From the NCBI GenBank assembly GCA_035326425.1, contig DAOLFG010000005.1, forward strand, positions 29,827 through 93,826: 64,000 bases of DNA, in the 5' to 3' direction. A program made the position numbers and the translations under genes. The DNA is from Geminicoccus sp. (lineage in GTDB: Bacteria; Pseudomonadota; Alphaproteobacteria; Geminicoccales; Geminicoccaceae). Under the pieces are notes generated by a model. It did no database searches, was not told the DNA's origin, and was given only the letters and a program-made list of their open reading frames with translations. Shown piece after piece: positions 12,998 to 16,781 of the stretch. Each line of letters starts with the position of its first letter. Positions within the stretch are counted from its first letter, which is position 1.

Positions 12998-13819
12998 TCA
13001 CTCGATCAGCCTGCCGATCGCCGAGAAGATCGACGGCATCGTCCCCAGCCCTTCCCTCAGATAGGAGAACAGGAACGGGATATAGAGGGCCAGCACGAAC
13101 AGGCCGACGCCGGACTTCACCGGCATCGCCAGCACGAAGACGTTGAGCTGCGGCGCGAAGCGGCTGACCAGCGCCAGCCCGAATTCCGACACGAACATTG
13201 CGATGATCAGCGGGCCCGAGAACACCACGGCGAGGTACATGACCCGGTCGGCGACACCCAGCACGTAGGTGGGCGTGTCGGGGGGCAGGTTCGGCCAGAA
13301 GCTGGTGACCGGCCAGGCGACGTAGCTGTCGTAGAGCAGTCCCAGGAAGACCAGGAAGCTGCCGCTGACGAAGAAGTAGCTGACATAGGCCTGCATGAAG
13401 AGGATGCCCATGGGCGTGGTGTCGGAGCCCGAGAGCGGGTCGATCGAGCCGGCCATGGCCGATCCGCGCTGGTTGTCGATGAAGAAGCCCGCACCCTCCA
13501 CACCCCAGAACAGAGCGCCGATGCTGTAGCCGATGAGCACCCCGATGCCGGTCTCCTTGAGCACGAGGCCCACGACCATGAGGTAGCTCATCGACAGGTC
13601 GACGGTGGGATAGACCACCGGGAACATGAACAGCGACAGGCTGAGCACGATGCCGCTGCGCACGATGCCGGTGATCACGGTGCGCGAGAAGGTGGGCATC
13701 AGCACGAAGATGGCGGTGAGCCGGGCGGCGCTCAGCAGCATCGTCGACATGGCGTGCTGGATCTGCGCCACCCAGTCGCTGGGCACGCCGGTGCGCAGCG
13801 CCTCGAGCACGTCGAACAT
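12998..13819 (-). CDS. sctT: Type III secretion export-apparatus protein SctT (YscT/FliR family)
   Basis: 273 aa with 6-7 TM in an FliR/SctT-like pattern. Last gene of the tightly packed sctOPQRST run. Confidence 0.85.
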   Translation of the reverse strand: MFDVLEALRTGVPSDWVAQIQHAMSTMLLSAARLTAIFVLMPTFSRTVITGIVRSGIVLSLSLFMFPVVYPTVDLSMSYLMVVGLVLKETGIGVLIGYSIGALFWGVEGAGFFIDNQRGSAMAGSIDPLSGSDTTPMGILFMQAYVSYFFVSGSFLVFLGLLYDSYVAWPVTSFWPNLPPDTPTYVLGVADRVMYLAVVFSGPLIIAMFVSEFGLALVSRFAPQLNVFVLAMPVKSGVGLFVLALYIPFLFSYLREGLGTMPSIFSAIGRLIE

Positions 13820-13825
13820 GGCGCC

Positions 13826-14095
13826 TCAGCGCGTCAGCATCGGGAACTGCTCGAAGATCCTCAGCGTGTACTCGCGCATCTGGGCACCGAGCCAGGGTGC
13901 CGTCGCCACCATCGTCACGACCACCGCGATCAGCTTGATCGCGAAGCCCAGGGTCTGCTCCTGGATCTGGGTCAGTGCCTGGATCAGGCTGACCAGCACG
14001 CCGACCACGGTGGCGACGATGATCGGCGGCATCGACAGCAGCAGCACCAGCACGACGGCGGTGCCGGCGTGATGGACGATCATCTCTTCATGCAT
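13826..14095 (-). CDS. sctS: Type III secretion export-apparatus protein SctS (YscS/FliQ family)
   Basis: 89 aa in two TM hairpins. Carries the conserved ...GVLVSLIQALTQIQEQTL... core of the FliQ/SctS family. Confidence 0.9.
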   Translation of the reverse strand: MHEEMIVHHAGTAVVLVLLLSMPPIIVATVVGVLVSLIQALTQIQEQTLGFAIKLIAVVVTMVATAPWLGAQMREYTLRIFEQFPMLTR

Positions 14096-14105
14096 GGCTG
14101 TCGTC

Positions 14106-14756
14106 CTACTCGTAGCTCAGCACGAGGCCGTGGATCAGCCGCGTCCAGCCGTCCACGACGACGAAGAGGAACAGCTTGAAGGGCAGGGAGATGGTCAGGG
14201 GCGACACCATCATCATGCCCATGGCGAGCAGGATGTTGGAGACGATGAGGTCGATGGCGATGAAGGGCAGGTAGAGCAGGAAGCCGATCTCGAACGCCTT
14301 GGTCAGCTCGCTGACGGTGAAGGCCGGGACCAGGATGATCAGGTCCTCGCTGGTGACACCCTCGCGCGCCTCGGCGGGCCAGAGCCGGCGCGTCGAATCG
14401 AGGAAGAAGGCGCGCTCGGTCTCGTCGCTGTATTTCAGCAGGTATTGGCGGAAGGGCTCGCGTGCCCGCTCGGCCGCGGCCGCCCACGCCGCCGTGCTGC
14501 CATAGTCGAGCGACGGATCGTCCACCGACCGCCACATGTCGCGCAGCAGCGGCATGGTGATGTAGACGGTGAGGATGATGGTGATGCCGTAGAGCACCAT
14601 GTTGGGCGGCGCCTGCTGCACGCCCAGCGCGTTGCGCACCAGGAACAGCACGATCACGATCTTGGCGAACGCCGTCACCATCACCACCAGGAACGGGACG
14701 AGCGCCAGCCCGCCCAGCAGCAGGACGAGGATGAAGGGATCGGGAAAACCGGTCAT
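14106..14756 (-). CDS. sctR: Type III secretion export-apparatus protein SctR (YscR/FliP family)
   Basis: 216 aa. Long stretches are near-identical to my recollection of YscR: RNALGVQQ.PPNM, LPAFTVSELT.AFEIGFL.YLPF..IDL..SNILLAMGMMMVSP.TISLPFKL, DGWTRL.HGLV.SY. Confidence 0.95.
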   Translation of the reverse strand: MTGFPDPFILVLLLGGLALVPFLVVMVTAFAKIVIVLFLVRNALGVQQAPPNMVLYGITIILTVYITMPLLRDMWRSVDDPSLDYGSTAAWAAAAERAREPFRQYLLKYSDETERAFFLDSTRRLWPAEAREGVTSEDLIILVPAFTVSELTKAFEIGFLLYLPFIAIDLIVSNILLAMGMMMVSPLTISLPFKLFLFVVVDGWTRLIHGLVLSYE

Positions 14757-15733
14757 GTCTCGAAGAGGCGGTTGACGCGGACGCCGATGCGCTCGTCGAT
14801 CTGGATCAGCTCGCCGCTGCCGATCTTCTGGCCGTTGGCCAGGATGTCGACGGGTGCCCGCAGATCCTTGCCGAGATCGAAGCTGTAGCCGGCCGCCAGG
14901 GTCCGCAGCTCGCCCAGCGCGAGCTGGGTGCGGCCCAGCTCGAACACCAGGGTCACCGGCATGCTGTCCAGGTCGCCGGCGCTGTCGCCGCCCCCGGTGT
15001 CGTCCGCCATCGGCCGCCTCGCCCCGCCGCTCACTACTGCCCTACTCTGCGAAATCCGCGCCGGGAAAGCCAGCCGGCCGCCCACCACCAGCTCCACCCC
15101 GTCCTCGGCCAGCGCATGGCTCTCGAGCACGATCAGGTCGGCCGGACGCAGGCGGCGCAGCTCGCGCGTGGCCAGCCGCGTGCTGCCGATCCGGCAGGAA
15201 ACCGCCATCGGCAGGCTCCCGGCCGGAGCCGGCTCGAGCGGCGCCTGCTCCAGCAGGCTCGCCACGAGACGCAGGCCGTCCGGCTCGATCCACAACGCGG
15301 CGCCGGTAGCCGCTCCGGATTCGGCGCCGACGAGCCTGAAGCCCAGTGGCCGGGCGGCGGCGGGCCGGGCGGCGCTGCCGACCCGCCTCAACGCGAAGCG
15401 CCGGCCGACCCGCTGCTCGGCGCGTGCCAGCATGCCGGCCATCGCCGATTCCAGCAGGATGGCGCTCAGCTCGTCGTCGAGCGTCGAGGCCGTGCTTTCC
15501 GGGAAGGCCGCCTCGATCAGCCGGTCGACCAGGCCGCGCTCGACCCGCAGCCAGGCCAGCCGGCCGTCGATCTCGACCTCGAGGTCGACCGGCGCCACCA
15601 CCTCGGGGCAGTGCTCGATCGGGCAGGCCGCGAAGCTGGCCCCGATGCCGTCGACCGGCACCGGAGCCCGGCGGCAGAAGATGCGGTTGCCCAGCTCGAC
15701 CTCGTCGCCACGATGGCGCGGCAACGGGATCAA
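14753..15733 (-). CDS. sctQ: Type III secretion sorting-platform / C-ring protein SctQ (YscQ/HrcQ)
   Basis: C-terminal SpoA/FliN domain (VTLVFELGRTQLALGELRTLAAGYSFDLG...GELIQIDERIGVRV). Start assigned to a TTG overlapping the sctP stop (TTGA). The stop overlaps the sctR ATG (ATGA). The upstream part of track ORF 14753..16315 is a shadow of sctP. Confidence 0.8.
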   Translation of the reverse strand: MIPLPRHRGDEVELGNRIFCRRAPVPVDGIGASFAACPIEHCPEVVAPVDLEVEIDGRLAWLRVERGLVDRLIEAAFPESTASTLDDELSAILLESAMAGMLARAEQRVGRRFALRRVGSAARPAAARPLGFRLVGAESGAATGAALWIEPDGLRLVASLLEQAPLEPAPAGSLPMAVSCRIGSTRLATRELRRLRPADLIVLESHALAEDGVELVVGGRLAFPARISQSRAVVSGGARRPMADDTGGGDSAGDLDSMPVTLVFELGRTQLALGELRTLAAGYSFDLGKDLRAPVDILANGQKIGSGELIQIDERIGVRVNRLFET

Positions 15734-16293
15734 GCGCCCGCTCCGTCGTTGCCGTCGCCTGCTCCGCCTTCCGGCTCGCGCCGGCCGAAGCGCAGCTCGA
15801 CCTCGCGCCCGGCGCGGTCCCTCAGCCGGCCGGCCAGCTCGCCGCTGCGCGCGCGCAGCAGGGCGAGGTCGGCCTGGTTGGCGGTGGCGAAGGCCACCAC
15901 CAGCCGCCCGCCCTCCTCGAAGAGGCGGATCTCCAGGCCGGGGAAGGCGTCCGGCCCCATCTCGATGCGGACCTCGCGCCGGCCGCCCGAGCCGTCGCCG
16001 ACCAGCACCCGGCTGGCGATGGCCTCGACCAGCCGGCCGACGGCGCGGTTGTCGGGTGCCGCGGCACCGGCGACCATGCCGCGCAGCATGGCATCGCCCG
16101 GCGAGCGGAAGGTGAAGGCGGCCGGTGCCGGGCCCAGCTTCTCGGCCTCGGCCGGCCTGTCCTTGCCGAGCAGGCTCTCGAAGTGGTCGACGTCGCCTTC
16201 CTGCGGCCGATCCTGGCGCGGCCGGTCCTCCTGCCGGCCCGCCGGCATCCCCGGCGTATGGCCGAGGCCGAAGCTCGACTGGTCGGTCTTCAT
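15730..16293 (-). CDS. sctP: SctP/HrpP/HpaP-like needle-length / substrate-switch protein (T3S4, FliK C-terminal-like domain)
   Basis: 187 aa. Disordered Pro/Arg-rich N-terminus. The C-terminal block VRIEMGPDAFPGLEIRLFEEGGRLVVAFATANQADLALL resembles the FliK/YscP T3S4 domain. Its position between sctO and sctQ fits. The start overlaps the sctO stop. Confidence 0.6.
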   Translation of the reverse strand: MKTDQSSFGLGHTPGMPAGRQEDRPRQDRPQEGDVDHFESLLGKDRPAEAEKLGPAPAAFTFRSPGDAMLRGMVAGAAAPDNRAVGRLVEAIASRVLVGDGSGGRREVRIEMGPDAFPGLEIRLFEEGGRLVVAFATANQADLALLRARSGELAGRLRDRAGREVELRFGRREPEGGAGDGNDGAGA

Positions 16294-16781
16294 GCGAACC
16301 GCTCCTCGACGTCACCTCGCCCGCCCGAGAACTGCTCCTCGAGCTCGATCTCCTCGATGCGCTCGAGATAGGCGCGATGCTCGGCCTCGAGCCAGTCGGC
16401 GAGATCCTCGAACTTCTGTCTCGCCCGCGCGGCGGCGTCCAGCACCGACACCGCCTGTGTCAGCGCCGTGTTGGCGTCGTTGCGCGCCTTGTCGGCCTCG
16501 GCCACCTTCTCCGCCAGCACCTGCTCGCGGCCGCGCAGCAGGCCGATATCGGTCTTCAGATCCTCGATGTCGCGCAGCTTGACCACCCGCGTCTCGATCT
16601 CGTCCCACAGCTCGACCTCGCGCCGCACCCGCCAGATCCGGTAGTCCTGCAGCTCCTGCCGGCGCTGCTCGACCCGGCGCGCGGCGTCCTCCAGCGCCAG
16701 CCGCCGGCGGCGCACCTCCTCCTGCGCCCGCTCCTCGCGGCGCTCCTTGACGTCGACGATCTGCTGGATGACGTCGTGCAC
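16290..16781 (-). CDS. sctO: SctO (YscO/FliJ-like) type III secretion stalk protein
   Basis: 163-aa all-helical coiled-coil. The QDYRIWRVRRE motif parallels YscO QDYHLWRIDEE. GTG start 58 nt downstream of the CoxL-like stop. Confidence 0.7.
   Translation of the reverse strand: MHDVIQQIVDVKERREERAQEEVRRRRLALEDAARRVEQRRQELQDYRIWRVRREVELWDEIETRVVKLRDIEDLKTDIGLLRGREQVLAEKVAEADKARNDANTALTQAVSVLDAAARARQKFEDLADWLEAEHRAYLERIEEIELEEQFSGGRGDVEERFA

Follow-up and report, generated by a model that had tools for sequence, protein, structure and literature searches.

A 64,000-nucleotide stretch of DNA from Geminicoccus sp. (GenBank assembly GCA_035326425.1, contig DAOLFG010000005.1, positions 29,827 to 93,826; hereafter the window) contains six genes of a type III secretion system (T3SS), sctO-P-Q-R-S-T, which form a block of intact, tightly coupled open reading frames (ORFs) on the minus strand at 12998–16781. 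The block starts with sctO (16290–16781, 163 amino acids (aa), GTG start), which is followed by an sctP-like gene (15730–16293, 187 aa), sctQ (14753–15733, 326 aa), sctR (14106–14756, 216 aa), sctS (13826–14095, 89 aa), and sctT (12998–13819, 273 aa), all on the same strand. Consecutive genes overlap by 4 nt at each of the O/P, P/Q, and Q/R junctions, and the remaining gaps measure 10 nt (R–S) and 6 nt (S–T). On one side, 58 nt separate the sctO start from the stop codon (16840) of a gene for a CoxL-like molybdopterin dehydrogenase (16840–19164). On the other side, a 75-nt gap lies between the sctT stop and a 58-aa charged ORF (12746–12922, minus strand), beyond which a divergent MerR gene and a P-type ATPase gene are located. 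These measurements reproduce the six intact genes, the three overlaps, the 6–10 nt gaps, and the flanking distances of 58 and 75 nt given in a preliminary description of the locus.

Protein identities were scored with Pfam and NCBIfam profiles against the curated cut-offs, and structural counterparts were assigned by sequence match to PDB entries. SctO matches PF07321 (YscO, 1.7e-30) above the cut-off and over nearly its full length, residues 5–151 covering positions 1–147 of the 149-position profile, and also matches the YscO structure 4mh6 (1e-7). SctQ scores 125 bits with TIGR02551 (cut-off 100.8) and carries PF01052 in two C-terminal FliN/SpoA-like stretches. SctR (TIGR01102, 284 bits, cut-off 208.6; NF009438, 302 bits), SctS (TIGR01403, 101.5 bits, cut-off 76.5), and SctT (TIGR01401, 225.5 bits, cut-off 163) belong to the non-flagellar export apparatus, as the corresponding flagellar models score lower (fliP 195, fliQ 82, and fliR 127 bits); for SctQ the non-flagellar model also outperforms the flagellar one. 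SctR has its best PDB match in SpaP from the needle complex of Salmonella (6pem, 1.7e-49), and it matches FliP at about 1e-41. Both matches extend over the full length and support, at the level of sequence, the same helical gate architecture as in the export gates SpaPQR (6pem/6pep) and FliPQR (6f2d/6r69). The sctP-like product has a weak match to TIGR02514 (yscP, 2e-9, 37.6 bits, below the cut-off of 76.5), and its matches to the FliK C-terminal and HpaP models are also weak and below cut-off. Its assignment is supported by its conserved place, flanked by sctO and sctQ, and by 37% identity to the gene at the equivalent position in a contiguous T3SS cluster of an uncultured member of the Geminicoccaceae (JGI 3300048838, locus L092), whose SctO is 52% identical to that of the window. 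The genes of the block are already correctly annotated at NCBI, where the sctT product is named SctT (HMR29943.1 and HMU48791.1, Geminicoccus sp.).

The O-P-Q-R-S-T order and the overlapping junctions are shared with the Ysc/Psc virB operon yscN-O-P-Q-R-S-T-U of Yersinia pCD1, Aeromonas, and Photorhabdus. SctR, SctS, SctT, and SctQ are 52%, 64%, 41%, and 29% identical to their Y. pestis counterparts, which agrees with the earlier recognition of a Ysc-type order and of a SctR close to YscR. The Ysc-type label used here is provisional and follows the named relatives (Yersinia, Aeromonas, Photorhabdus, Endozoicomonas, and Chromatiaceae, with clusters of Ysc-like gene order). Unlike the Ysc/Psc operon, the block has neither sctN directly 5' of sctO nor sctU directly 3' of sctT, both genes being located on other contigs. 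In addition, SctP comprises 187 aa in the window versus 455 aa in the Ysc system, and the operon yopN-tyeA-sycN-yscX-yscY-yscV, which lies upstream in the Ysc/Psc system, has no equivalent upstream of the block. A six-frame tblastn search with about 70 T3SS proteins detects no further T3SS gene or fragment in the 64-kb window, and no piece of sctN or sctU in particular. Pfam gene tables covering record positions 23848–98526, which extend the window by 6 kb at its start and by 4.7 kb at its end, contain no other T3SS genes either, in line with the previous statement that sctN and sctU are missing and that these 64 kb show no sctV, secretin, sctJ/D, needle, translocon, chaperone, or effector genes.

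This arrangement is exceptional among related loci. SctT, used to scan the GTDB species representatives, yielded 80 loci, which were mapped by phmmer with the Y. pestis pCD1 proteins (locus L062); the window species is outside the representatives scanned, and the best SctT there is 55% identical. In essentially every one of these loci whose contig reaches so far, sctU follows sctT, and in the Ysc-like clusters sctN precedes sctO wherever sctO is present. Most of the 80 loci show both adjacencies, and a minority has another gene order, for example Bilophila and Mailhella with clusters of the type SctV-S-T-U.

The missing neighbours are found elsewhere in the same genome. Companion loci were read in the metagenome-assembled genome (MAG) GCA_035328565.1, in which the window corresponds to contig DAOLIL010000005.1 (139,725 bp; record positions 29827–93826). 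A search with the SctN of L092 retrieves P0307 (HMR29432.1 and HMU48336.1), the product of a solitary sctN on contig DAOLIL010000002.1 (L102), which is flanked by genes for a TPP enzyme and a RidA-like protein on one side and by an ABC sugar transporter on the other. Similarly, the SctU of L092 retrieves P0280 (HMR32429.1 and HMU52808.1), which originates from the same two MAGs as the window SctT and is encoded on contig DAOLIL010000104.1 (L100). An identical but longer ENA contig (L099) extends this third locus up to sctC. Its minus-strand genes are sctL, sctK, sctJ, a 146-aa sctI-like gene, and an HrpB1/TPR gene. Its plus strand carries genes for proteins of 205 and 1006 aa, two CesT chaperones, a 341-aa protein, and sctU, followed by a methyltransferase, proteins of 151 and 262 aa, a 171-aa needle-like protein, a TPR protein, an SseC-like translocator, a second TPR protein, a 302-aa YopD-like protein, a CesT chaperone, the secretin sctC, and a HATPase. 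Non-T3SS genes are located on either flank. At this locus, sctU is preceded by effector/chaperone-type genes rather than by sctT, and no remnant of sctO-T is present at the sctU or sctN loci. The partners encoded outside the window are 66% (SctN–YscN), 41% (SctU), 46% (SctJ), and 33% (SctC) identical to the Y. pestis proteins. Of the highest-ranking SctU and SctN homologues examined, just one SctU and one SctN cluster carry the accessions of these MAGs.

A scattered but complete non-flagellar T3SS (NF-T3SS) has been defined by the presence of sctC, J, N, Q, R, S, T, U, and V in one genome at more than one locus, without flagellum-specific genes (PMC3459982). Eight of these nine core genes are found in the same species at three loci: sctQ, R, S, and T in the window, sctN on L102, sctU and sctJ on L100, and sctC on L099. 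The block, previously described as an orphan, is one with respect to the window, but not with respect to the genome, where at least two further T3SS loci exist in the same assembly. The partners that the preliminary description proposed to seek in the rest of the genome are accordingly present as far as sctN, sctU, sctC, sctJ, and sctL are concerned, whereas sctV, sctD, and sctF do not occur in the loci read.

The closest contiguous clusters found belong to uncultured Geminicoccaceae, namely a GTDB MAG (L009, SctT 55% identical) and the aforementioned L092 (SctT 57% identical). Both have the layout CesT-sctN-O-P-Q-R-(CesT, 583 aa, 194 aa)-S-T-U-methyltransferase-needle-like genes-TPR-SseC-TPR-YopD-CesT-secretin. 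Their SctR and SctS are 77% and 83% identical to those of the window, and the sctU-to-sctC stretch of L099 is collinear with that of L092. In these clusters sctN to sctU form one run, whereas in the window lineage sctN and sctO-T occupy separate housekeeping loci. Moreover, the three-gene insert between sctR and sctS of the contiguous clusters has no counterpart in the window, where the two genes are adjacent. The ancestral layout was probably a single cluster sctN-O-P-Q-R-(...)-S-T-U-...-sctC, as kept in the sister Geminicoccaceae, from which sctN and sctO-T would have moved out separately in the window lineage and been inserted between housekeeping genes.

The three-place layout and its neighbouring genes are the same in a sister species whose SctT (P0004) is 81% identical. 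The order there (L089) is smpB-dapA-SLT-rhomboid-CoxL-sctO-P-Q-R-S-T-small ORF-adh_short-GST-ABC. A metagenomic sample with the sctS-sctT block of this species (L091) also contains the sctL-K-J/sctU-sctC locus without sctO-T (L097). Furthermore, the sister sctN is solitary, lies between RidA and an ABC transporter, and shares a 148-kb contig (L105) with the block, at a distance of about 50 kb and in the same orientation. All six ORFs are full length with their overlapping junctions kept in both species, between which SctT has diverged by 19% and SctP by about 35%, SctS being 99% identical. Of the two junctions for which a synteny comparison had been proposed, CoxL-sctO is kept, whereas the MerR/ATPase pair beyond sctT is absent from the sister species. 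In the window the MerR gene (12311–12712, plus strand) and the heavy-metal P-type ATPase gene (10076–12208, minus strand) lie next to the small ORF, which in L089 is directly followed by adh_short; an indel of roughly 2.7 kb distinguishes the two species here.

All six genes are under purifying selection. Ratios of nonsynonymous to synonymous substitution (dN/dS), calculated by the Nei–Gojobori method between the window species and the sister species, are 0.26 for sctO, 0.57 for sctP, 0.45 for sctQ, 0.17 for sctR, 0.03 for sctS, and 0.33 for sctT. The partner genes sctN and sctU have values of 0.14 and 0.21, and the flanking housekeeping genes range from 0.11 to 0.54. The strong bias toward GC at third codon positions lowers dS in all genes alike; therefore the comparison with the neighbours is the informative part. 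The hallmarks of a decayed remnant, such as frameshifts, truncations, or dN/dS near 1, are not seen in the six genes, and the frameshifts or relaxed selection in a close relative that had been named as signs of decay did not appear.

Together, these observations make it very likely that the block is one functional fragment, and the sole sctO-P-Q-R-S-T copy, of a single Ysc-type NF-T3SS dispersed to at least three chromosomal places. The dispersed genes would presumably yield a machine that assembles and secretes, with sctV, sctD, sctF, and sctW probably located at one or more further loci. In a different Geminicoccaceae MAG (L094), LcrR-like, SctF, and SctE genes are located just beyond the secretin, suggesting that a further T3SS locus exists. 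Dispersal over several loci was the first of three explanations in the preliminary description, and the finding of sctN on one contig and of sctL-K-J, sctU, and the translocon genes on another supports it.

Several points weigh against this reading. No sctV, sctD, bona fide short sctF, or sctW is present in the loci of the species that were read, which cover parts of the genome. A metagenome scan with an SctV alignment gave no match attributable to this lineage among the 600 candidates listed, most of which are distant or at the level of FlhA. The best GC-rich match among them (L106, 61%) was set aside, since it belongs to another organism with another layout. In addition, the assignment of sctP is weak. 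Finally, contigs of one MAG bin could in principle stem from different organisms. The window proteins carry the NCBI labels 'Geminicoccaceae bacterium' and 'Geminicoccus sp.', with accessions paired across two MAGs (HMR/HMU). This pairing in two independent MAGs argues against a mixed bin, as does the sister species, where sctN and the block share one 148-kb contig.

None of the loci read contains sctV, sctD, sctF, or sctW, and the gate and sorting-platform genes might instead have been co-opted to serve non-canonical partners, such as flagellar FlhA/FlhB, or a reduced apparatus that lacks SctV, SctD, or a needle. The flagellar stator genes motA/motB in the window and the existence of T3SS variants without a secretin in Myxococcales (PMC3459982) would be compatible with such a role. 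The non-flagellar models, however, clearly beat the flagellar ones for SctR, SctS, SctT, and SctQ, and the failure of sctV to appear concerns the loci read rather than a negative whole-genome search. Moreover, SctN, SctU, SctL, SctK, SctJ, SctC, translocators, and chaperones are present under purifying selection, for which a complete injectisome is the simplest reading. Co-option, the third of the earlier explanations, is thus not needed because canonical partners exist in the genome, and we regard it as improbable. We give slightly less credence still to the idea that the lineage truly lacks sctV, sctD, and a conventional needle gene and builds a reduced or re-partnered apparatus from the sctO-T block, the solitary sctN, and the sctU-sctC locus, for example with the flagellar FlhA, or that the scattering marks a change to constitutive, decoupled expression like that proposed for Chlamydia.

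The second of the earlier explanations, a recently rearranged remnant, holds that the block is an unused leftover of a rearranged or lost T3SS that has not yet accumulated lesions. It would account for the absence of sctN and sctU from their usual positions and for the failure to locate sctV and sctD in the loci read, and related alphaproteobacterial clusters do decay. In an Acetobacteraceae MAG (JBBCGR010000003.1, L065), sctR and sctU are fragmented, and insertions of 5–9 kb separate sctS from sctT in L065 and L079, an indication that T3SSs of this type are often rearranged or decay in Alphaproteobacteria. In the window lineage, by contrast, the ORFs and overlapping junctions remain intact in two species 19% apart in SctT, dN/dS remains well below 1 and does not exceed that of the neighbouring housekeeping genes, and the partner genes sctN, sctU, sctJ, sctK, sctL, and sctC are likewise intact and constrained. 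These findings contradict a remnant, which we consider very improbable. Least probable of all is that the block is a spare, decaying copy of a complete canonical cluster elsewhere, for which there is nothing direct beyond the fact that only parts of the MAG were read, and which is contradicted by the sctU-to-sctC locus without sctO-T or remnants thereof, by the single SctU and SctN clusters among the top homologues examined, by the constrained partner genes, and by the conservation and constraint of the block in the second species.

In the dispersed system, the products of the block would act together with the proteins encoded at the other two loci, as judged from established T3SS biology. SctR, SctS, and SctT would form the helical core of the export gate in the inner membrane, and SctQ would build the cytoplasmic sorting-platform pods together with SctK and SctL. 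SctO would serve as the stalk coupling the ATPase SctN to the export gate. SctP would act as the needle-length ruler and, with SctU, determine when export passes from needle subunits to later substrates. SctN would thus be supplied from contig 2, and SctU, SctL, SctK, SctJ, the SctI-like protein, the translocon, the chaperones, and SctC from the third locus.

NF-T3SSs are nearly always encoded at one locus (Abby and Rocha 2012, PMC3459982). Scattered complete systems are an established category, which includes all Chlamydiales, Hamiltonella defensa, and pYPTS01, and constitutive expression has been proposed to relax the selection for clustering (PMC3459982). The window lineage is probably a new addition to this category; the machinery is standard, and the result concerns genome organisation and not mechanism. 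Like the Chlamydiales and H. defensa, it distributes the core genes of one system over several chromosomal loci. Those organisms are obligate intracellular or endosymbiotic, whereas the window host is a high-GC alphaproteobacterium with a Ysc-type system. Furthermore, the chlamydial T3SS forms a family of its own, while the window lineage adds a single-gene sctN locus and has sister taxa with contiguous clusters. The literature searched contains no link between Geminicoccus and a T3SS. Here a Ysc-type system is split at gene boundaries, with a layout stable across at least two species, and the contiguous sister clusters and the split lineage provide a natural before-and-after pair in which to study how a machine encoded by several operons copes with being fragmented. 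The arrangement raises questions about new promoters, stoichiometry, and the loss of horizontal transferability. Detectors of T3SS that rely on clusters would score these genomes as incomplete.

The 58-nt gap between the CoxL-like gene and sctO contains a candidate sigma70-like promoter (16800–16831, minus strand; GCTTCTT-N-GCTAAGAT), whose -10-like TAAGAT ends 18 nt ahead of the sctO GTG. The sister species retains both boxes, with a diverged spacer between them. This bipartite pattern, GCTT-N20-GC[GT]A[AGT]GAT, recurs with identical 20-nt spacing 5' of the solitary sctN in both species and is similar to a sigma70-type promoter (cTTG..-N18-nAnGAT). The 64-kb window contains it once (0.06 expected), and among the 185 loci examined it is confined to these sites apart from one unrelated match in L116. 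As the pattern was defined after the sequences had been seen, it is offered as a hypothesis. A terminator-like hairpin (16834–16855, minus strand), detected with a consensus scan, spans the CoxL-like stop codon and is followed by ACGCTTCTTT; with two such sites in 5.2 kb against 1.4 expected, it is weak evidence. The conserved promoter candidate and this hairpin do not favour the earlier suggestion that the block is read through from the CoxL-like gene. The block probably has its own sigma70-like promoter, and the shared element suggests that each relocated piece has one, rather than being transcribed from a neighbouring gene. Pattern scans found no hrp-box, PIP-box, or tts-box near the block, as the preliminary description had noted.

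A 15-nt direct repeat, AGAGCGCTCAAGCAT, was considered as a common T3SS box and rejected, as it is absent from the window. Two copies of it bracket a CTTGAC -35-like box 5' of the needle-like/translocon operon (L099 11986–12024, L097 11990–12028, and L094 3238–3276). The pair is conserved in three Geminicoccaceae genomes, and a single variant copy is located 5' of the 1006-aa gene. The repeats are a candidate operator of a T3SS regulator.

The 58-aa ORF downstream of sctT (MARKPNYRFERQERERLKAEKKAEKAARKA...) is rich in lysine and glutamate. It has no Pfam or NCBIfam match and no homologue among 80 other T3SS loci. Its first ~30 codons are kept downstream of sctT in the sister species, and its acidic tail varies. 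The ORF was rejected as an SctU remnant, since neither phmmer nor tblastn relates it to SctU. The 75-nt gap 3' of sctT contains a GC hairpin (GACGCCGGGCGTC, 12944–12960, minus strand) with no T-run after it, and a different hairpin (GCCGGTGCGCCGGC) is found at the equivalent place in the sister species; these may be RNA-end or stabilising structures. The same hairpin is the left arm of a 17-nt imperfect inverted repeat (12944–12960/16860–16876) that was evaluated as a mobile-element repeat and attributed to chance, being one of 26 similar chance-level pairs. No tRNA gene, sought as a signature of mobile elements, was found in the window.

The genes around the block have housekeeping and transport functions and include smpB, dapA, a lytic transglycosylase, a rhomboid protease, motA/motB, ABC transporters, nitrile hydratase, and purD. 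The stator genes motA/motB (23604–25430, plus strand) are located 7 kb from the block, and the organism is probably flagellated, with a separate flagellar export apparatus. A gene for a 192-aa protein at about 3360–3938 (plus strand) has a weak match to the eukaryote-like dual-specificity phosphatase domain PF00782 (DSPc) and has a conserved counterpart at the equivalent place in the sister species (L089 17620–18201). A patatin-like phospholipase gene (464 aa, 34838–36232, plus strand) directly follows a gene for a 1100-aa SAM/guanylate-cyclase/AAA/TPR protein (31484–34786, plus strand). Patatin-like enzymes include T3SS effectors such as ExoU; nothing in the window ties this gene to secretion. 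A FitA-like RHH/PIN toxin-antitoxin pair is encoded at 39984–40636 (plus strand), and a similar pair lies directly beside sctL in the second T3SS locus of the sister species (L097 2483–3138), a recurrence that is probably coincidental.

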